64,000 nucleotides of DNA from contig JADGRH010000003.1 of NCBI GenBank assembly GCA_017881075.1, positions 64,682 to 128,681 of the forward strand, in the 5' to 3' direction. Shown here in pieces: positions 30,058-50,771 of the stretch. Position 1 is the stretch's first letter; each line of letters starts with the position of its first letter. Both the position numbers and the translations under genes were made by a program. The stretch comes from Minisyncoccota bacterium (GTDB lineage: Bacteria > Patescibacteriota > Minisyncoccia > Phycocordibacterales > CAJBRS01). The notes beneath the pieces were generated by a model. That model was given only the letters and a program-made list of their open reading frames with translations, did no database searches and was not told the origin of the DNA.

Positions 30058-30457
30058 TCTTCTTGAATCGGGTAATTGCTCCGCCACCTAAAAAGGGCGG
30101 GGAGGAAAGTCCGAACACAGGCCCTTCACCAAAATTGGTGAAGGGAAGAGTAGCGGGTAATACCCGTCTGGAGCAATCCACGAGGTGCGAACAGAGACGA
30201 ACCGGTTAAGTCCGGGTGAAACGGCTAAATCCTTACTTCTGTGCAAGGCCGCGCGCCAATTTTGTCCGCTAGAGGCGGTTACAAAATTGAGCGTCCCGAG
30301 ATTTTCGAGGGATTGATCCTTCGACAAGCTCAGGGCACTCAATCTTGCAGCCACCTGCAGTGGGCAAGATTGGTGAGTGCCGCTTGACTCCGAGAGTAAT
30401 CGAGGAGCTAGATAAATAATTATCGATAACAGAATTCGGCTTATAGATTCAAGAAGA
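30058..30457 (+). ncRNA. rnpB: RNase P RNA (bacterial type A)
   Basis: GAGGAAAGTCCGAACAC (CR-I) and ACAGAATTCGGCTTATAG (CR-V). P1 pairing tcttcttgaatc (30058-) / gattcaagaaga (-30457). Promoter TTGTCT-16-TATAAT at 30026-30053. Confidence 0.9.
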
Positions 30458-30463
30458 CAAATC

Positions 30464-43539: not shown

Positions 43540-44793
43540 TTATTTTAAGGCTAGATTTCCATTAGCTCCGAAATCGGATTTCGGGTTTTTGTCACTTAAA
43601 TAATTGAAATAACCAGCCATGGCGATCATAATGGCGTTGTCGGTGGAGAGGTGGGAGTCGGGAATTAGGAGTTGGGTGTCAGGAGAAGCAGCGATTAAAT
43701 CTTGAAAGGAGCGGCGGAGGTGGGTATTGGCGATTACACCTCCGCCGACTATTAGAGTTTTAATATCAAATTCTTCAATGGCTCGTTTGGTTTTGGTAAT
43801 CAATACTTCAGTGACCGAATCTTCAAATTCTCTGGCCATTTTTGCTTTCCATTCTGGATCTGATTTTTCTTTGTCGGTCATTTTTTTAATTGTGTAAAGG
43901 ACGGCAGTTTTCAATCCGGAAAAAGAGAAATCGTAATCGTTTGATTTGATCATTGGTCTGGGCAAAACAAAGTTGCAGAGGTTTGACCTCTGCAAGTGAT
44001 CTGCAGAGGTCAGACCTCTGCAACGCTCTAAATCGGCCAATTTTGAGATTTCAGGCCCGCCAGGGTAGGGAAGATCCAGCATTCTAGCCACCTTATCAAA
44101 AGCTTCTCCAACCGCGTCATCACGAGTTTGACCAATGATTTTGTATTTTTTCCATGCTTCAATTAAGACTAGCTCAGTATGGCCACCGCTAATGAGAAGT
44201 GCTAAAGCTGGAAAAGAAAAGCTGACAGTTGGTAACTGATAGCTTTCAGCTTTAGATTTTTTTGGTAATAAAGCTGACATAATGTGTCCTTCCATGTGAT
44301 TAGTAGGAATGACAGGCAGATCCCAAACGAATCCCAACGCCTTGGCAAAATTAATACCGACCCAAAGTGCTGGCTCAAGACCGGGGCCGGTGGTGACGGC
44401 AATGGCTTCAATATCCGGCTTAGGAATTGTCGGAATAAATTTAAGAAATTGTTCGAGTAATTCAGGCTCGCGTTCTAGGATCTTTTTCAAACCCCCTCCA
44501 ACTCCCCCTTGTCTAAGGGGGAGAGGAAGCCCCCCCTCCTCAAACGAGGAGGGGGTAGGGGGTGGTGTTGAACCCAATTTATCTAATAACTCTTTTAACA
44601 ACGGAATCAGATTTCTAGAATGCTCTCTCTTCGCCATCATCGGATACACTCCGCCATATTTTTCATGAATTTTAGTCTGGGAATTAAGCGCTTCAGCAAT
44701 CACTTTAAATTGAGGTCGCTCAAAACCGCCATTGGATTCCACGATAGCGAGCGCTGTTTCATCACAGCTAGTTTCAATACCTAGGATTTTCAT
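43540..44793 (-). CDS. tsaD: tRNA N6-adenosine threonylcarbamoyltransferase TsaD, with two insertions
   Basis: MKILGIETSCDETALAIV, NHMEGHI, GGVIAN. 417 aa vs a typical ~340. Confidence 0.9.
   Translation of the reverse strand: MKILGIETSCDETALAIVESNGGFERPQFKVIAEALNSQTKIHEKYGGVYPMMAKREHSRNLIPLLKELLDKLGSTPPPTPSSFEEGGLPLPLRQGGVGGGLKKILEREPELLEQFLKFIPTIPKPDIEAIAVTTGPGLEPALWVGINFAKALGFVWDLPVIPTNHMEGHIMSALLPKKSKAESYQLPTVSFSFPALALLISGGHTELVLIEAWKKYKIIGQTRDDAVGEAFDKVARMLDLPYPGGPEISKLADLERCRGLTSADHLQRSNLCNFVLPRPMIKSNDYDFSFSGLKTAVLYTIKKMTDKEKSDPEWKAKMAREFEDSVTEVLITKTKRAIEEFDIKTLIVGGGVIANTHLRRSFQDLIAASPDTQLLIPDSHLSTDNAIMIAMAGYFNYLSDKNPKSDFGANGNLALK
43973..44022. repeat. two tandem palindromes inside the tsaD CDS
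   Basis: ttgcagaggtttgacctctgcaa (43973-43995) and tgcagaggtcagacctctgca (44002-44022); they encode part of ...CRGLTSADHLQRSNLCN. Confidence 0.8.
44502..44554. repeat. two GC-rich perfect hairpins inside the tsaD CDS
   Basis: ctccccctt-gtct-aagggggag (44502-44523) and ccccctcctc-aaac-gaggaggggg (44531-44554); they encode PSSFEEGGLPLPLRQGG. Confidence 0.8.
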
Positions 44794-44816
44794 TTGCTTG
44801 CCATGAGTTTATCGAA

Positions 44817-44892
44817 TGGTGGGCGATAGAGGACTCGAACCTCTGGCATCAACAACGTCAATGTTGCGCTCTACCAGCTGAGCTAATCGCCC
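44817..44892 (-). tRNA. tRNA-Val (anticodon GAC), CCA encoded
   Basis: Reverse complement GGGCGATTAGCTCAGCTGGTAGAGCGCAACATTGACGTTGTTG...GGTTCGAGTCC...ATCGCCCACCA. Confidence 0.9.
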
Positions 44893-44931
44893 GTTCGTTT
44901 AATCTATCATTTTAACAATTTGTAAACAATG

Positions 44932-45018
44932 CGGAGGAGAGAGGATTTGAACCTCTGATGCGGTTTCCCACATGCCGGTTTTCGAAACCGGTGCCTTCAA
45001 CCACTCAGCCACTCCTCC
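44932..45018 (-). tRNA. tRNA-Ser (anticodon CGA), type II
   Basis: Reverse complement GGAGGAGTGGCTGAGTGGTTGAAGGCA-CCGGT-TTCGAAA-ACCGG, long variable arm, GGTTCAAATCC T-loop. Confidence 0.9.
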
Positions 45019-45046
45019 GTGAGAATTTATGGTAGCATATTTTGGA

Positions 45047-45118
45047 GGCCCTATCGTCTAACGGTTAGGACATCGCCTTTTCAAGGCGGTAATCCGGGTT
45101 CGATTCCCGGTAGGGTCA
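45047..45118 (+). tRNA. tRNA-Glu (anticodon TTC)
   Basis: GGCCCTATCGTCTAACGGTTAGGAC, anticodon loop TTTTCAA, T-arm CCGGG-TTCGATT-CCCGG, TAGGGTCA. Confidence 0.9.
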
Positions 45119-45239
45119 CAGATTTTGTAACTATATTTTGCAACGTATTTTGACTTACCCGATAGGATGTTCAGAACTTTTGTTGTGTTCTATTGATCAT
45201 CCTTTCGTGAGCCGAGTAAAATTTGATATAATTGAAACA

Positions 45240-45515
45240 ATGAATAACATTACCAAAAGTTTTTTACTTTTTATTTTCTCCTATATTCCCATATTAATTC
45301 CTTATTACTTATCTCTGAACATTCAGGGTGATTATTTTTCTTATATAACTTATGGATTATGGCTTTTATTGTCTGGAATATCTGCCTATTTCGCTTATAA
45401 AACATTTAAAAAAGATGAGCATCGTGTTGGAGGAGTTCTTCTTTTTATGGTTGACTTACTCCCTTTTATCTTGACCTTATATCTTTGGTATTTAAACGAA
45501 AATCTTTATGGTTGA
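45240..45515 (+). CDS. small membrane protein
   Basis: Internal ATG (MNNITKSFLLFIFSYIPILIPYYL...); 3 TM helices. Confidence 0.4.
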   Translation: MNNITKSFLLFIFSYIPILIPYYLSLNIQGDYFSYITYGLWLLLSGISAYFAYKTFKKDEHRVGGVLLFMVDLLPFILTLYLWYLNENLYG

Positions 45516-45525
45516 TAAGTTTTAA

Positions 45526-45667
45526 CATCCTCTACTAGACTGATCAAGCGTGAACTTGTGAACGTCGTGAACCTTATCTAACCACCAACTCCAACTCTTG
45601 AATACTACTTTTTATACAATACTTATAACTCACCAGTTCTGAAAGCCACCCTATAGGGTCATATCAT
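45526..45667 (+). repeat. direct repeat DR1 (~142 bp) flanking the PAS-sigma-PAS cassette
   Basis: Aligns end to end with 47845-47987. Shared blocks: catcctctact, cttgtgaacNNcgtgaac, ttcNgaaagccaccctatRgggtcat. Roughly 70% identity by eye. Confidence 0.7.
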
Positions 45668-45831
45668 TAATGAGGAGAGGCGTCTGATACAACGCCAACA
45701 TAGTGTTGACGAGCGTGCGGAGACATTACATTCATTCCATATAAAAAAGCATTGATCAATATTAGTAAAACAATAGTGGTTATAGCCCCTTTTAATGCTT
45801 TAGATGAAAATATGGAATGTGCTTCGGGCAT
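45667..45831 (-). CDS. possible 54-aa single-TM protein downstream of the PAS gene
   Basis: ATG 5 nt after the stop of 45836..46432 (MPEAHSIFSSKALKGAITTIVLLILINAFLYG...); below the track cutoff. Confidence 0.3.
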   Translation of the reverse strand: MPEAHSIFSSKALKGAITTIVLLILINAFLYGMNVMSPHARQHYVGVVSDASPH

Positions 45832-45835
45832 AGAA

Positions 45836-46432
45836 TTATACGTATTGTGGGTTCTTTTTGAGCTTGTTAATTTCTTTCACTAATTCTCCGATATGGATCT
45901 CCAAGTTCTGTGTTCGCTCCGCCAGTTTTATTTCCAGTTGATTTGAATGTTTGGCCATTGTTTCGGCGATCTTCATCATTTCAGTTACATCTTCTATGGC
46001 CAAAAGAATAATTGGTGGAAATATTTTTGAGGCACTTTCTTCTTGAAAATGTATTTGCCGAGCATTTAAGATCATTACCTTACGGCCGATGGAAGGAAAT
46101 TCATGGGCCACTTCAAAACCTTTGAGGAAAGTATTTTTAGGTAGAATGTCTTCCAATAGATCACGCAGTGATGGGATATTCCATTGACCATTACCGAGTT
46201 CATAAACATGCGTATGAGTAGTATCTTTTTCTTCCACTTGAAACATCTTGTAGAAGGACTCGTTGGCCGCCATGACACAGAGATCTTTATTAAGGATTAA
46301 GACTGGTTCCCGTACTACATCCACTACCGTTTTAATGTATGTCCATCCTTCTGCCGATAAGCGCTCGAAAAAACTAGCCCCAAATGGCTTAGAAGACTCG
46401 GCTATCTCATTTTTAGGTGCTTTCATATTCAT
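45836..46432 (-). CDS. PAS (PAS_10-like) domain protein with C-terminal coiled coil
   Basis: REPVLILNKDLCVMAANESFYKMFQV...YELGNGQWNIPSLRDLLEDILP...ILNARQI matches the PAS domain seen in CheB/CheR-fusion sensor proteins. Confidence 0.65.
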   Translation of the reverse strand: MNMKAPKNEIAESSKPFGASFFERLSAEGWTYIKTVVDVVREPVLILNKDLCVMAANESFYKMFQVEEKDTTHTHVYELGNGQWNIPSLRDLLEDILPKNTFLKGFEVAHEFPSIGRKVMILNARQIHFQEESASKIFPPIILLAIEDVTEMMKIAETMAKHSNQLEIKLAERTQNLEIHIGELVKEINKLKKNPQYV

Positions 46433-46570
46433 ATAGCCGAGAGCGTGCCTAAAGCATTACAGCTTGCTATAAGTAGCATAATGTGATAGGCTTAAAGTCT
46501 AGTTACAGTCTCCTTGGTGGCAACACTGAAATACTCTTGTAATAGAAGCTCGCCGCGTGCGGCATATCTT

Positions 46571-47104
46571 ATGATTAGTCCAAAACAACTGACAAAGATG
46601 CAGGGGGTATTAACGAGCGCCCACCTCGACTTTGAAAGGGCGCTTAATAAACATGCCTTTTTCAAGGTAAATGACCATAATATCGGTGAAGATTTGGTAC
46701 AAGACACTTTCCTAAAAACATGGGCCTACCTTGTAAAAGGTGGGGAGATTGTTTTGATGAGAGCTTTTTTATATCACATCCTCAACAATCTCATTATTGA
46801 TCAATATCGAAAACCAAAAACAACCTCTCTTGACGTTTTGCTTGAAAAAAACTTTGAGCCGAGCACCGATATTACCGATAGCCTTTTTAATATCATTGAT
46901 GGCAAAGCAGCCGCTTTACTCATTGAACGTCTGCCTGAAAAATACCAAAAGGTCATGAAGATGCGACACATAGAGCTTCTGTCACTTAAAGAAATATCCG
47001 CCATCACCGGACAATCCCAAAATACCATTGCCGTTCAAACCCATCGCGGATTAATGAAACTGAAGGTGTTGTATGATAATCCTCTACCGGGTGGAGCAGA
47101 TTAG
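46571..47104 (+). CDS. RNA polymerase sigma-70 family factor (ECF-like)
   Basis: Region 2 EDLVQDTFLKTWAY...YHILNNLIIDQYRK. Region 4 LPEKYQKVMKMRHIELLSLKEISAITGQSQNTIAVQTHRGLMKLK. Start uncertain (46514/46571/46598). Confidence 0.8.
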   Translation: MISPKQLTKMQGVLTSAHLDFERALNKHAFFKVNDHNIGEDLVQDTFLKTWAYLVKGGEIVLMRAFLYHILNNLIIDQYRKPKTTSLDVLLEKNFEPSTDITDSLFNIIDGKAAALLIERLPEKYQKVMKMRHIELLSLKEISAITGQSQNTIAVQTHRGLMKLKVLYDNPLPGGAD

Positions 47105-47209
47105 ATTTTATTAATTGGAGGCATGGTAAGATACTGGAACCCCTATTAGAAAACCCTGATACTGAAACTTGTCTTGTAATAGGCTAGCCTATCCAATGGC
47201 TTCATTGTT

Positions 47210-47791
47210 ATGAAAAAATACAAAAAGGACCTTGGCCGAGAATTTAATCAAGCGGAGATAGATTTTATCGAGCGTATAGATAAAGAAAGTAGGTTATATA
47301 TTAAGACCTTGGTGGATATTGTCCGGGAGCCAATTTTAATACTTGATGAAGATCTTCGGGTGAAGATGGCCAACGAGTCCTTCTACAAGATGTTTCAAGT
47401 GGAAGAAAAAGATACTACTCATATGCATGTTTATGAACTCGGTAATGGTCAGTGGAATATTCCTGCTCTCCGAAAACTTCTTGAAGAGATTCTGCCTAAA
47501 AATACCTTCTTCAAAGGTTTTAATGTTACTCATGAGTTTCCTATAATCGGCCAGAAATCAATGGTCTTAAATGCCCGCAAGATTTATTTCGCGGATAACA
47601 CTACTCCACAAATATTTCCGTCTATTATCTTTCTTGCTATAGAAGACAACACCGCAATGATGGCTGTTGCTGAAACTCTGGCTATTCACGTAAAAGAACT
47701 TGCATCTAAAAATGCAGAACGAACCTGGAAACTAGAAATGTATATCTCTAAATTAGAAAAAGAAATTAATGAAATCAAGGAGAATATTTAG
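47210..47791 (+). CDS. PAS (PAS_10-like) domain protein with C-terminal coiled coil, paralog of 45836..46432
   Basis: About 75% identical to the paralog over the PAS core (ESFYKMFQVEEKDTTHMHVYELGNGQWNIPALRKLLEEILPKNTFFKGF...). Confidence 0.65.
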   Translation: MKKYKKDLGREFNQAEIDFIERIDKESRLYIKTLVDIVREPILILDEDLRVKMANESFYKMFQVEEKDTTHMHVYELGNGQWNIPALRKLLEEILPKNTFFKGFNVTHEFPIIGQKSMVLNARKIYFADNTTPQIFPSIIFLAIEDNTAMMAVAETLAIHVKELASKNAERTWKLEMYISKLEKEINEIKENI

Positions 47792-47844
47792 ATCCCGACA
47801 CTAGACAAACATTCTGTAGAAATCATTGGATGGTCTGGTTCTAG

Positions 47845-47987
47845 CATCCTCTACTGGGCGGGGCAAAGGTATACTTGTGAACACCGTGAACGTTATTTCA
47901 TTACTAAACTCAATTCTTGTATGCTAGATTTGATATAATCACTCTGACCTTCAAGTTCGGAAAGCCACCCTATGGGGGTCATGCCAT
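47845..47987 (+). repeat. direct repeat DR2 (~143 bp); also promoter/5' UTR of the 47988 gene
   Basis: Homologous to 45526-45667. Contains an extended -10 tgatataat (47931-47939) and ends at the ATG of 47988. Confidence 0.7.
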
Positions 47988-48608
47988 ATGAACGCTCACA
48001 TGCAGTCCAAATCAGTTATAGCAATTGATGTCGATGATGTTATTGCTGCAAACGCAAAGGCTTTTATAGAATATAGCAATCAGAAATTTGACACTAATTT
48101 AACGATTGATGATTACCAAGAACATTGGGGTGAAGTTTGGAAGGTAGAGTATAACGAGGGAGAAGAGCGTGCGGTTGAATATATTGATTCTGGTCACATA
48201 GCAACATATGGGATGATTGAAGGTGCTAGAGAGGCTCTTCTGCAACTAAAAAAACATTTTGAACTCATAGTATTAACTACAAGGCGAAATTCTGTAAAAC
48301 AGCTGACGAAAGACTGGCTTGAAAAATATTATCCCGACGTTTTTGACGACTTCATTTTTACCGGATTTTTCGATTCTCCAACTAAAGATAGTATTAATAT
48401 GACTAAAGCAGAATTGGCCAAAAGTATTAGGGCGGATTATCTTATCGATGATCAACTAAAACACATTATGGCTGCATCAGAGATCGGCATAAAAGGTCTT
48501 CTCTTTGGTAATTATTCATGGAATAAGACTGATAATCTTCCGAAAAATGTTACTCGAGTTACGGATTGGCAACAGATACTTATTTATTTTGAGAATCATA
48601 TAAGCTGA
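47988..48608 (+). CDS. HAD-superfamily 5'(3')-deoxyribonucleotidase-like hydrolase
   Basis: IAIDVDDVIA (DxDxV motif I), LTTR (motif II), ...DYLIDDQ (motif IV). Confidence 0.65.
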   Translation: MNAHMQSKSVIAIDVDDVIAANAKAFIEYSNQKFDTNLTIDDYQEHWGEVWKVEYNEGEERAVEYIDSGHIATYGMIEGAREALLQLKKHFELIVLTTRRNSVKQLTKDWLEKYYPDVFDDFIFTGFFDSPTKDSINMTKAELAKSIRADYLIDDQLKHIMAASEIGIKGLLFGNYSWNKTDNLPKNVTRVTDWQQILIYFENHIS

Positions 48609-48693
48609 TTCCAATTCTCTCCCACTCGGGTCACGTCATTCGTTACTTTTTGTCTATTCACGAAGCGGTTGTTCCCTGTTAAAATAGGAGATT

Positions 48694-49476
48694 ATGAAAT
48701 ATTTTTCAATCCTCGAACAGTCAAGCAAAGAAGCTATTCGAGAATTTGCAGAAAAGAGAAATCTTACTGATTATATTAAAGGAAATTATCAGCACTCCCA
48801 AGAAGACTACTTAATCGCTTCGAATACTCCTCCAATTTTTGTCGTTTCAGACGGCGTTACTTTGAATTTTATGAAATTAGTCGAAAGTAATACTAAATAC
48901 CCGAATCCTTCGCCTGCCGGTGCAGTTGCGAAGATATTTTGTGAAGCGGTGATAAAAAGCGTTAAAGAAAAATATGAGAAATTTAATGAGAAAGATCTTG
49001 CGGCTGTTTTCAAAGAAGCCAATAATGAAGTCGCTGAATATAATAGAAGGGTCGGAAAGAGTGATATTTCAGGAAATAAAACAGGATTTTATTCGGCGAC
49101 AGGCTCATTTGTAATCATTCGTGATAATAAAGCATATTGGGTATCTATCTGTGATTCCTTCGTTGCCCTTTTTGATAATGAAATGAATCTAAAATTTATG
49201 TCTACCGGAGTATGTAGTCCTTATGCCGTCATCAATGGCGAGAAATATATGGTTGATTATTTAGAAAAAGGGATTTTTAATCTAGAAAGAGGAGATCGTA
49301 TTTTTGTCTTTACCGACGGCTTCGAACAATACGTTAGAAATCCTGATTTTCAGAAACTCTTTTTAGAATGGAATGGAAACATAAAGGAACGCATTGCGAT
49401 ATTTTCTGAAAAAATGAACCTCGAAGACCCTACAAAATATGGGCAAGAGCGTTCTATCATAGCAATATCTAGTTAA
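48694..49476 (+). CDS. hypothetical protein, weak PP2C/SpoIIE-like phosphatase motifs
   Basis: FVVSDGVT and IFVFTDGFEQ resemble PP2C metal-binding motifs; otherwise unrecognised. Confidence 0.4.
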   Translation: MKYFSILEQSSKEAIREFAEKRNLTDYIKGNYQHSQEDYLIASNTPPIFVVSDGVTLNFMKLVESNTKYPNPSPAGAVAKIFCEAVIKSVKEKYEKFNEKDLAAVFKEANNEVAEYNRRVGKSDISGNKTGFYSATGSFVIIRDNKAYWVSICDSFVALFDNEMNLKFMSTGVCSPYAVINGEKYMVDYLEKGIFNLERGDRIFVFTDGFEQYVRNPDFQKLFLEWNGNIKERIAIFSEKMNLEDPTKYGQERSIIAISS

Positions 49477-49575
49477 ATATTTTGAAGTGAAAAATGGCTC
49501 CTGACCCCATTTTTCTACTCAGTGATGTGGTAGAATCTGAAGACGGAATTTTTATTCGTTAATTAATATAAAATC

Positions 49576-49845
49576 ATGGTTGACCCAACAAAAATAGACA
49601 TGAATCAGTTGCCGAAGAAATTTTGTGACGGTGCCATTGGGGCGTTCGGTAAGGAACTTTTTTCTTTTGCTCTTACTTCTGGCAATAACCTAGATTCTTT
49701 TGCCACCACACCCCAGACAATGAAAAGTATTGCTGTCTGGATGGGAGCTCAAATAGAGAATTACGAAAAACAATTCGGAGTTATTGATATGACCCCGCCA
49801 CAAATCCAGAGCCCAATCCAGGCAGCTGATTTGGATAATAAATAG
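49576..49845 (+). CDS. DUF3467-like small protein
   Basis: 89 aa; ...ELFSFALTSG...TPQTMKSIAVWMGAQIENYEKQFGVI pattern recalled from DUF3467. Confidence 0.45.
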   Translation: MVDPTKIDMNQLPKKFCDGAIGAFGKELFSFALTSGNNLDSFATTPQTMKSIAVWMGAQIENYEKQFGVIDMTPPQIQSPIQAADLDNK

Positions 49846-49847
49846 CC

Positions 49848-50771
49848 CTATTTTGTATGTAGATGGACATAAATGTCCTCGAGAGCCTTGACGGCGTCGC
49901 CGGCGGCGATGTTGTTTTGGTGATAGAGACCATCGGTGCAGTCACCGGCGGCCCAGATGCCAGGCGAGCTAGTCTGCTGGGTGCGAGGGTCCACAATGAT
50001 TTGGCCGTAAGTATTTTGAGCTACCAGACCCTTGGTAAAATCAGTTGAGGGAATAAGGCCAATTTCTACGAAAACGCCGGTGACCGAAAGCTCGGTATTT
50101 TCTTTCGTCTCTCTATTTTGATAGACAATTGATTTAACAAATTTTTCACCTTTTACTTCCACCAGATCGGCATTTAAAACGGCATGCATTTTTGGATTGG
50201 AGAGTACTTTTTTAACAGTGACGGGATCAGCTCGAAACTCCTCGCTTCGATTGAGAAGGGTGACGCTTTTGCAATAAGCTAAAAGTTGAGCGGCTGTCTC
50301 AAATGCGGCATTGCCGCCGCCTATCACCACCACGTCCTGATCGGAAAAGAGTGGGCCGTCGCAGGAGGCGCAATAAGTAATGCCTTTATTCTCAAACTCC
50401 ACAGCGCCGGGAACAATCAATTTTCGGCGAGTACTGCCGGCAGTAAGAAGAACGGTCTTGCCTTCAAAATCACCCTCGGAAGTTTTAACCATGAAACCGT
50501 CAGAAGTTTTTTTAATAGAATTAACATATCCACCTTCTTTAATATCCACTGTGTCGCCGGCGTAAGCTTTTAGGTGCTGGCGAAAATTATCAGCCAGCGC
50601 CAATCCTTTAATTGAAATGGTCCCTATCCAATTTTGGATGTCTTCAGAAACATTACTCTGTCCGCCGATCTCTTTAGCCACTAGAACAGTCTTCAGGCGC
50701 TTGCGCGCCGCATATACTCCGGCGGCGACCCCTCCGGGGCCGCCGCCAATAATTATTAAATCGTAAATCAC
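49848..50771 (-). CDS. trxB: thioredoxin-disulfide reductase
   Basis: IIIGGGPGG, redox CASCDG, second GGGNAA NADPH site, AAGDCTD. Confidence 0.9.
   Translation of the reverse strand: MIYDLIIIGGGPGGVAAGVYAARKRLKTVLVAKEIGGQSNVSEDIQNWIGTISIKGLALADNFRQHLKAYAGDTVDIKEGGYVNSIKKTSDGFMVKTSEGDFEGKTVLLTAGSTRRKLIVPGAVEFENKGITYCASCDGPLFSDQDVVVIGGGNAAFETAAQLLAYCKSVTLLNRSEEFRADPVTVKKVLSNPKMHAVLNADLVEVKGEKFVKSIVYQNRETKENTELSVTGVFVEIGLIPSTDFTKGLVAQNTYGQIIVDPRTQQTSSPGIWAAGDCTDGLYHQNNIAAGDAVKALEDIYVHLHTK

Follow-up and report, generated by a model that had tools for sequence, protein, structure and literature searches.

The described systems closest to the locus considered here are the sigma-X, sigma-W, sigma-M and sigma-V pairs of Bacillus, in which an extracytoplasmic function (ECF) sigma factor of two domains (regions 2 and 4) activates its own gene and that of its partner, a membrane anti-sigma factor with an N-terminal anti-sigma domain that is encoded in the same operon. 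The consensus promoters read TGTAAC...CGAC for sigma-X and TGAAAC...CGTA for sigma-W. A stretch of 64,000 nucleotides from a Minisyncoccota bacterium (contig JADGRH010000003.1; this whole 64-kb stretch is called the window below) holds a gene for an ECF-type sigma factor flanked by two genes for small proteins, PAS1 and PAS2, each with a PAS domain and a long C-terminal helix, and the three genes are bracketed by direct repeats. Similar to the Bacillus sigma factors, this one has regions 2 and 4 and is matched best by the family models of SigM, SigZ, SigW and SigV; its predicted promoters, with a TGTAAT -35 element, a CGGC or CGTC -10 element and a gap of 16 nt, lie near the Bacillus consensus; and it would likewise activate its own gene and that of its partner, with a predicted envelope and stress regulon. 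Different from the Bacillus pairs, the partner is not a membrane anti-sigma factor but a soluble coiled-coil PAS protein, the two genes are divergent rather than joined in one operon, and their mRNAs are predicted to be leaderless or nearly so. Class I anti-sigma factors also differ, as PAS1 and PAS2 carry no recognisable domain of that kind (zf-HC2, RskA or similar), no gene is conserved downstream of the sigma gene in 80 related loci, and the PAS gene is divergent from the sigma gene in 77 of the 80.

Cytoplasmic PAS sensors upstream of a stress sigma factor are known from YtvA and RsbP in the sigma-B system of Bacillus and from the LOV and PAS kinases that act through PhyR, NepR and EcfG in Alphaproteobacteria; however, these inputs pass through STAS/stressosome, PP2C or kinase/PhyR/NepR relays, none of which is conserved here, so that the PAS protein would have to act directly. 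In NifL-NifA a PAS protein inhibits an activator by direct binding, and the complex of the two (9qq6) is the top structural match of the PAS model; NifL, however, has extra domains, targets a sigma-54 activator rather than a sigma factor, and is 15% identical. The short LOV/PAS proteins PpSB1-LOV and SBW25-LOV share the N-cap helix, the PAS core and the long C-terminal helix, with TM-scores of up to 0.74 by the LOV length and 0.5-0.6 by the query length, but identity is 10-15%, and the LOV flavin-binding motif with its adduct cysteine (GXNCRFLQ) was not seen by eye in an alignment of 52 PAS sequences. To our knowledge, short LOV proteins have no dedicated link to a sigma gene. Finally, multi-PAS histidine kinases contain the same PAS subtype (about 150 bits per domain, in 2-5 tandem copies) with the same junction to the following helix; these proteins continue into HisKA/HATPase outputs, whereas in the Paceibacteria protein the helix is the last element.

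How Patescibacteria (the candidate phyla radiation, CPR) regulate their genes is almost entirely unknown; they have tiny genomes and cannot be grown alone. Neither a sigma-PAS system in the CPR nor a PAS-type ECF regulator turned up in full-text literature searches, and these phyla go unmentioned in the main text of the ECF re-classification paper. For ECF sigma factors, the searchable literature thus contains no regulator of the kind that the PAS protein is proposed to be, and the module provides a concrete, testable circuit for a whole class, comprising a sigma factor, a promoter sequence, a likely envelope/stress regulon and a candidate sensor-regulator.

The sigma-PAS module and its promoter

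By every sequence test applied, the sigma gene product is an ordinary member of the ECF (group 4) branch of the sigma-70 family. The protein (177 residues, or 168 from the alternative start at 46598, as in record P0121, which is identical in sequence) contains Sigma70_r2 (PF04542, 4.5e-6, 26.8 bits against a cut-off of 24), which ends at residue 81, and Sigma70_r4_2 (PF08281, 7.8e-11, 41.9 bits against a cut-off of 25.7), which begins at residue 116, with no Sigma70_r3 match; it also passes the curated ECF superfamily model TIGR02937 (58.4 bits against a cut-off of 42.9). An earlier note on this DNA, which had called the gene sigma-70/ECF-like, is borne out by all three models. None of the equivalog-level models was passed, and thus no named subgroup is assigned. 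Region 2 is ordinary in sequence (GEDLVQDTF), and the relatives of the protein in the PDB are SigH, SigW, SigL and SigE.

With the PAS protein as query, 80 species-representative loci were fetched from GTDB, and the sigma ortholog was then sought. A sigma ortholog adjoins the PAS ortholog in 79 of 79 evaluable species-level Paceibacteria genomes. In 60 loci the sigma ortholog (51-68% identity) is divergent from the PAS gene across a gap of less than 450 bp, in 17 it is divergent with other genes between the two, and in 2 it lies upstream of the PAS gene on the same strand; in 1 locus the PAS gene is at a contig edge and the arrangement is not evaluable. When all open reading frames (ORFs) of 85 loci were clustered, the PAS and sigma families alone were universal and the other neighbours were heterogeneous, and among the 80 loci there are 32 cases in which no gene follows the sigma gene, the remainder having unrelated ORFs there. 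Since no other neighbour is conserved, there is no conserved classical anti-sigma gene beside the sigma gene in these 80 loci, as had been noticed earlier for the window, and the PAS protein is the sigma factor's only constant, co-regulated companion. The arrangement had been thought unusual; instead, it is the standard module of the lineage, and only the second PAS copy is uncommon (extra copies occur in 4 of the 80 loci). We consider a conserved, co-regulated sigma-PAS module to be close to certain. Having no conserved, co-regulated partner besides the PAS protein, the sigma factor is likely to be regulated by it, and the earlier proposal that the PAS/coiled-coil proteins are its dedicated partners is supported by the adjacency, by the promoter common to both genes and by the lack of a conserved anti-sigma gene. 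The two families are of similar size, with at least 1916 PAS homologs of about 190 residues at E<=1e-3 and at least 1856 sigma homologs at E<=1e-10, two counts that were taken at different cut-offs and are both lower bounds; all of the PAS homologs whose source is named come from Patescibacteria or Paceibacteria.

One motif, TGTAATAA-N14-CGGC(TTA), was found on both strands of the intergenic regions of the relatives, and the promoter form common to the sigma and PAS genes is TGTAAT(A/G)N-N14-CGGC (i.e., TGTAAT-N16-CGGC). In its strict form the motif precedes 55 of the 86 PAS genes and 53 of the 77 sigma genes; 54 of the 55 PAS sites share a 14-nt spacer, and CGGC precedes the ATG by 9 nt in 36 of these 55 sites and by 7-15 nt at most sigma genes. 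At the sigma genes of most relatives the -35 element is in tandem (TGTAAT-N5-TGTAATAA). The layout of the motif is that expected of an ECF promoter and points to autoregulation at the sigma gene. Furthermore, since a CGGC element 7-9 nt from the ATG leaves no room for a Shine-Dalgarno leader, the sigma and PAS mRNAs would be leaderless or nearly so.

A position weight matrix trained on other genomes only was then run on the window, and its three best matches lie in front of the sigma gene, PAS1 and PAS2 (Table 1), with the fourth-best match at 8.5 bits. A search for the sigma factor's promoter motif upstream of the PAS genes had been proposed in the earlier note, and the matrix finds it before both. 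Within the window the motif is absent from both direct repeats and from the regions upstream of the HAD and PP2C genes. Matrix sites of at least 14 bits number 229 in 879 kb of module loci, compared to 6 in 861 kb of control Patescibacteria loci. About 100 sites lie outside the sigma and PAS genes, in front of neighbouring genes that are mostly within 1-3 kb of the PAS gene (L001-L080), and the genes behind them encode Ice-binding-like and PG-binding secreted proteins, sortase, YggT, Transgly_assoc (GlsB/YmgE-type), DUF5670 and fn3-type proteins. The putative regulon thus resembles a set of envelope and general-stress genes that cluster physically around their regulator.

A second, unrelated ECF sigma gene (26% identity) was seen in one relative (L078, 2465-3341), followed by a gene for a 131-residue protein with a hydrophobic C-terminal segment. 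Judged by eye, without a domain scan, that protein may be an anti-sigma factor of the conventional type, in which case these organisms would have classical pairs as well.

The PAS proteins as candidate regulators of the sigma factor

The two PAS proteins had been described earlier as about 75% identical and PAS_10-like. Alignment gave 61% identity, the 75% being positives, and Pfam gave PAS_8, PAS, PAS_9 and PAS_4 rather than PAS_10, with PAS_8 on PAS2 as the sole match above cut-off. At the DNA level the two genes form an inverted repeat of 522 nt that is 72% identical. The start of PAS1 is likely to be the second ATG, at 46426. An AlphaFold2 model of PAS2 built with 52 homologs (pLDDT 87.8) has a helix at residues 14-36, a PAS core at 42-146 and a helix at 148-192. 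The strands of the core (42-46, 50-54, 100-110, 114-125 and 139-146) form the five-stranded sheet with flanking helices of the PAS superfamily, and the last helix is a leucine-zipper helix of 45 residues with the heptad L175/I179/L182 in the family alignment, in agreement with the C-terminal coiled coils that had been noted. A structure search with the model returned 217 PDB matches at E<=1e-3; nearly all of the 50 listed are proteins with PAS/LOV domains, and the best of these 50, at 10-17% identity, are short LOV proteins, NifL (the NifL-NifA complex included), DosP and FixL.

The family is highly conserved, and the invariant positions in its alignment include Q81, W82, H108, K116, R123 and E145/D146, then T148. 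Junctions of the D-(I/V)-T type couple PAS domains to output helices, and E145/D146-x-T148 can be interpreted as such a PAS-to-helix junction, as in sensor kinases. A full-library profile search found 9732 representative proteins with this PAS subtype at E<=1e-3, among them large sensor kinases that carry 2-5 tandem copies in front of HisKA/HATPase (P0361-P0510). Since the subtype is the one found in these kinases, the Paceibacteria PAS protein resembles a kinase sensor module with nothing beyond the signalling helix.

PAS1 and PAS2 each have closer relatives elsewhere (up to 76% identity) than each other; their mirror arrangement is therefore not a recent local duplication, and they are old paralogs of different clades. 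All 83 PAS genes of the 80 GTDB loci are nearer to PAS1 than to PAS2. The PAS2 clade is rare (L081-L085), and in L085 a PAS2-clade gene stands beside the sigma gene together with a PAS1-type copy. PAS1 and the sigma factor are thus the canonical pair, and PAS2 is an old paralog with a weaker promoter of its own. The PAS2-type gene of L081 is flanked by genes for two proteins of 194-200 residues with no significant Pfam match (one has none, and the other has two far below cut-off). As for the 54-residue peptide with a possible transmembrane segment proposed beside PAS1, an ORF with one hydrophobic segment does exist, but it has no homolog in the 80 related loci; if real, it would be co-transcribed with PAS1.

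In the account that we favour, and regard as reasonably probable, the PAS protein gates an autoregulated ECF sigma factor, and the direct repeats are old copies of the control region of the HAD gene. The sigma factor would transcribe its own gene and those of its PAS partner or partners, so that a positive loop would be coupled to the making of its own regulator. The PAS protein would be a dimer held by the C-terminal leucine zipper, would bind the sigma factor and keep it inactive, and would release it when a cytoplasmic signal is sensed in the PAS pocket; it would thereby do the job of an anti-sigma factor without belonging by sequence to any anti-sigma family. PAS1 would be the canonical partner, and PAS2, with its weaker -10 element, would add a second input. 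Taken by itself, direct binding between the PAS protein and the sigma factor could go either way. A wider reading is more tentative and, in its entirety, somewhat doubtful. According to that reading, the PAS/coiled-coil proteins are a new, non-homologous soluble class that gates an ECF sigma factor directly, with a one-protein cytoplasmic sensing route to the envelope/stress regulon of Paceibacteria, leaderless and bidirectionally autoregulated promoters, two PAS paralogs gating one sigma factor, and a duplicated nucleotidase promoter from which antisense transcripts run into the main PAS gene. Should gating of the sigma factor by the PAS protein prove true, this would be a new mechanism of ECF regulation and would offer an orthogonal set of sensor, sigma factor and promoter, and Paceibacteria, which have very few regulators, would gain a one-protein cytoplasmic route to an envelope/stress regulon. 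Each part, whether small soluble protein or short promoter, is amenable to testing in E. coli.

The direct repeats and the nucleotidase gene

The repeats are of less consequence than the module. One is the conserved control region of a nucleotidase gene, and the other is an old copy of that region. The claim that direct repeats of about 143 bp bracket the cassette stood up, with a length of about 172 nt, somewhat more than had been stated. A gapped alignment of 45500-45673 with 47820-47991 (about 72% identity) scored 94, compared to 19.4+-2.2 (maximum 31) for shuffled sequences; the ungapped repeat (45519-45658 and 47838-47977) is 71% identical over 140 nt, and blastn within the window gave 71.7% over 145 nt at E=9e-16. 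The three shared blocks quoted in the earlier note are all present, each just twice in the window. The repeat begins in the last codons of a 91-residue ORF (TM91), and both copies end at an ATG, which is that of a 5-codon ORF at 45670 in the left copy (DR-L) and the start of the HAD gene at 47988 in the right copy (DR-R).

DR-R contains GTGAAC-ACC-GTGAAC (47877-47891), an extended -10 element TGATATAAT (47931-47939) and the hairpin or Shine-Dalgarno-like CCACCCTATGGGGGT. The region upstream of a HAD ortholog in another organism (L172; 68% identity), which there follows NUDIX and Ham1 genes in a different context, matches DR-R at 69.8% over 116 nt (E=3e-9) and DR-L at 66.7% (E=8e-4). Because DR-R is conserved upstream of this ortholog, it is the native, selected control region of the nucleotidase gene, as the earlier description of the right copy as promoter and 5' untranslated region of the HAD gene had it. 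Invariant in DR-L, DR-R and L172 are TTGTGAA..CGTGAAC, the -10 region (TGATATAAT in DR-R), AGTTC.GAAA.CCA, and GGGTCAT..CAT before the ATG. The putative GTGAAC direct-repeat operator lies about 40-55 nt upstream of the extended -10 element, there is no good -35 element, and a short hairpin leader follows; such an operator with an extended -10 element and no good -35 element suggests that the HAD promoter is activator-dependent.

The left copy is, as had been proposed, a duplicate of this promoter with nothing but a 5-codon ORF behind it. DR-L contains three GTGAAC hexamers (45550-45572), a -10-like TACAAT (45615-45620), the hairpin ACCCTATAGGGT (45648-45659) and the ATG at 45670 with its 5 codons, and it points into the 3' end of the unit formed by PAS1 and the 54-residue ORF. 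With L172 as outgroup, 115 columns held 15 left-specific, 11 right-specific and 17 L172-specific differences and 6 positions at which all three differ. These three-way counts suggest that the duplication is old, and DR-L appears not to have decayed faster than DR-R. DR-L may be a relic, or it may be a convergent (antisense) promoter. No remnant of HAD coding sequence was found after DR-L by tblastx or blastn, and no further copy of the repeat or its motifs was found in the window; among 172 fetched loci (1.8 Mb) only L172 matched. Two matches to the TGAAC repeat, in L009 and L041, are, by eye, probably PG_binding coding sequence. The 3' end of the sigma gene (47062-47098) resembles the start of DR-R (47829-47865) at 70% over 37 nt with a shared ATCCTCTAC.GGG, which is probably due to chance.

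Rfam 15 gave no match in the repeats, and its two matches in 45100-48100 lie outside them at chance level. A consensus fold of the two repeats has a 5-bp hairpin without compensatory change on the plus strand and two both-side changes on the minus strand, with two sequences as the only basis of comparison. The hairpin was considered as a collapsed tRNA-Glu and rejected, as alignments to tRNA-Glu scored within the range of shuffled sequences; a hint from synteny remains. In several relatives the HAD/NT5C ortholog starts 5-9 nt after a tRNA gene, which is tRNA-Glu in L167-L169 and L173 and another tRNA in L175/L176, and in L174 an acceptor-stem-like hairpin lies 28 nt upstream of the ortholog. 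The repeats of the window end in a ...GGGTCAT motif that is similar to these tRNA-linked upstream sites. The HAD gene may often share a transcript with a tRNA, from which tRNA processing would release it.

Table 1. Features of the sigma-PAS locus and related sites. Coordinates are those of the window, except in the last row.
Feature	Position	Strand	Basis or remark
Cluster of tRNA-Val(gac) (-), tRNA-Ser(cga) (-) and tRNA-Glu(ttc) (+)	44817..45119	mixed	ARAGORN and Rfam
Lineage-specific filling of lower GC between tRNA-Glu and TrxR, 4.7 kb	45120..49847		holds TM91 through PP2C_2
91-residue ORF (TM91), about 3 hydrophobic segments by eye	45240..45515	+	last codons overlap the start of DR-L
DR-L, left direct repeat, duplicate of the HAD control region	45500..45673	+	gapped local alignment
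54-residue ORF, one hydrophobic segment	45667..45831	-	no homolog in 80 related loci; starts 4 nt after the PAS1 stop
PAS1, canonical sigma partner, 196 residues from ATG 46426 (upstream ATG 46432)	45836..46426	-	N-cap helix, PAS core, C-terminal coiled coil
Predicted PAS1 promoter, TGTAATGC-N14-CGGC	46436..46461	-	CGGC 9 nt before the second ATG, 46426
Matrix match, PAS1	46465-46432	-	20.2 bits, second best in the window
Predicted sigma promoter, TGAAAT-N5-TGTAATAG-N14-CGGC, tandem -35	46527..46563	+	CGGC 7 nt before ATG 46571
Matrix match, sigma	46534-46567	+	25.5 bits, best in the window
ECF-type sigma factor, 177 residues	46571..47104	+	Sigma70_r2 and r4_2
Predicted PAS2 promoter, TGTAATAG-N14-TGGC, degenerate -10	47175..47200	+	9 nt before ATG 47210
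Matrix match, PAS2	47171-47204	+	16.2 bits, third best in the window
PAS2, rarer old paralog clade of the PAS1 family, 193 residues	47210..47791	+	AlphaFold2 pLDDT 87.8
DR-R, right direct repeat, native promoter, operator and leader of HAD	47820..47991	+	homologous region in L172
HAD-superfamily 5'(3')-deoxyribonucleotidase (NT5C family)	47988..48608	+	Pfam NT5C 1.9e-11; 133 homologs
PP2C_2 phosphatase-like protein	48694..49476	+	Pfam
tRNA or hairpin sites before HAD orthologs in relatives	L167 5920-6003; L173 1-39; L175/L176 2915-3003; L174 1800-1857		

Competing explanations and the genomic setting

Several points weigh against the account in which the PAS protein gates the sigma factor and the repeats are old copies of the HAD control region. 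Its key step, the binding of the PAS protein to the sigma factor, is one that we infer. No anti-sigma domain was found in PAS1 or PAS2, for which Pfam and NCBIfam gave PAS-type matches only, and no relative in the PDB was found by sequence for PAS2 or for the family profile. The PAS2-type gene of L081 (7289-9194) has no sigma gene within 8 kb and no sigma-type promoter. The predicted transcription starts are placed by motif geometry only, and in a shuffled control the matrix reached 20.9 bits once in 20 shuffles, so that the case for the PAS2 site (16.2 bits) draws on its precise location in addition to the score. As for the repeats, the relative-rate comparison is small (26 informative changes) and still compatible with a neutral left copy, and no cassette-free relative was found, the closest genome from a TsaD-anchored metagenome scan having a TsaD of 65% identity.

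The genes lie in the order TM91, DR-L, 54-residue ORF, PAS1, sigma, PAS2, DR-R, HAD and PP2C_2, in a 4.7-kb gap between tRNA-Glu and TrxR whose GC content is 0.371, compared to a window mean of 0.427 (standard deviation 0.030; rank 8 of 119 windows). The same three tRNAs stand between TrxR and TsaD in L086, L091, L113, L147, L163 and others, and this linkage (43540-50771 in the window) is kept in distant relatives, in which the gap measures 0.3 to 9 kb and its contents are unrelated. None of the sigma, PAS, HAD and PP2C genes was found in the TrxR-TsaD gap of the relatives, where it holds other genes or nothing, and no homolog of TM91 was found in the fetched loci. Because the gap varies and its contents are unrelated, it is a local hot spot of gene gain and loss, and the differing contents in relatives together with the lower GC in the window place the sigma-PAS module in a variable, tRNA-adjacent gap. 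The cassette does adjoin the tRNA-Val/Ser/Glu cluster, as the earlier note had it, and it is the cluster that is conserved in relatives while the filling beside it varies.

It is possible, without being probable, that the 2.1-kb block of PAS1, sigma and PAS2 is a cassette captured in the intergenic region between TM91 and HAD, either by an insertion that duplicated the region or by recombination through a copy of it. The repeat covers that whole region, from the last codons of TM91 to the HAD start codon, and of the two copies the right one belongs natively to HAD. In relatives the module turns up at no constant genomic position, and the 4.7 kb around it in the window is specific to the lineage and of lower GC content. 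However, no integrase, transposase or att-like tRNA fragment is present, a target duplication of 170 bp is atypical of known insertion mechanisms, no cassette-free relative came to light, and the two copies, at about 72% identity, are about as far apart as they are from the L172 ortholog, so that any such event is old. A tRNA-associated integrative island was considered separately and rejected, as 45.1-49.8 kb holds no recombinase domain and the repeats are not tRNA-derived (their alignment to tRNA-Glu is within the shuffle range).

The main rival to direct binding is that the PAS proteins are merely members of the sigma regulon or independent cytoplasmic sensors that make no contact with the sigma factor, whose activity would depend only on transcription of its own gene, on proteolysis or on a small protein that has escaped recognition. 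This we consider unlikely. Several ECF groups are known to have no anti-sigma factors (reviewed in PMC8999054), and the absence of an anti-sigma domain from the PAS proteins and the solitary PAS2-type gene of L081 would fit such an arrangement. Against it stand an adjacency that holds in every evaluable genome although no other neighbour is conserved, and the autoregulated promoter common to both genes. The ordinary region 2 suggests, moreover, that the sigma factor needs no activating modification, and a self-activating sigma factor without a brake would be unstable.

If the PAS protein is the brake, as we favour, DR-L could itself bear on it by acting as a promoter that shares its GTGAAC-binding regulator with HAD, with antisense transcription across the 54-residue ORF and PAS1 coupling the brake on the sigma factor to the nucleotidase signal. 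DR-L keeps the three operator hexamers, a TAnAAT -10 element and the leader blocks that are conserved in L172, its lineage-specific changes are not in excess (15 versus 11), and no terminator-like site lies between it and PAS1. Its -10 element, however, lacks the TG extension of the right copy, the rate test is weak, and the arrangement was seen in this one genome only; we therefore regard an active antisense promoter as rather improbable.

Partner switching had been suggested earlier; in an RsbU/V/W form, with the nearby PP2C acting on a PAS-containing partner, it can be set aside as very improbable. A PP2C_2 gene does lie 0.9 kb downstream of PAS2, and sigma-B of Bacillus is known to receive PAS-PP2C inputs (RsbP). 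However, neither a STAS antagonist nor an RsbW/HATPase kinase is present among the ORFs of 43.5-50.5 kb or the conserved clusters of the 85 loci, a PP2C homolog is near the module in 0 of the 85 loci, the PP2C gene of the window has no sigma-type promoter, and the sigma factor is of the ECF type rather than the sigma-B type.

Other features of the window were also recorded. TsaD (43540-44793, 417 residues) contains a Pro/Gly-rich insert (PPPTPSSFEEGGLPLPLRQGGVGGG), at which the closest relative, L086, differs in sequence. A long, near-perfect palindrome (ATGTCCGAAACG...CGTTTCGGACAT) lies at 697-745, beside a tRNA-Ser at 570-659, and a bacterial RNase P RNA of class A is present at 30060-30459 (113 bits).

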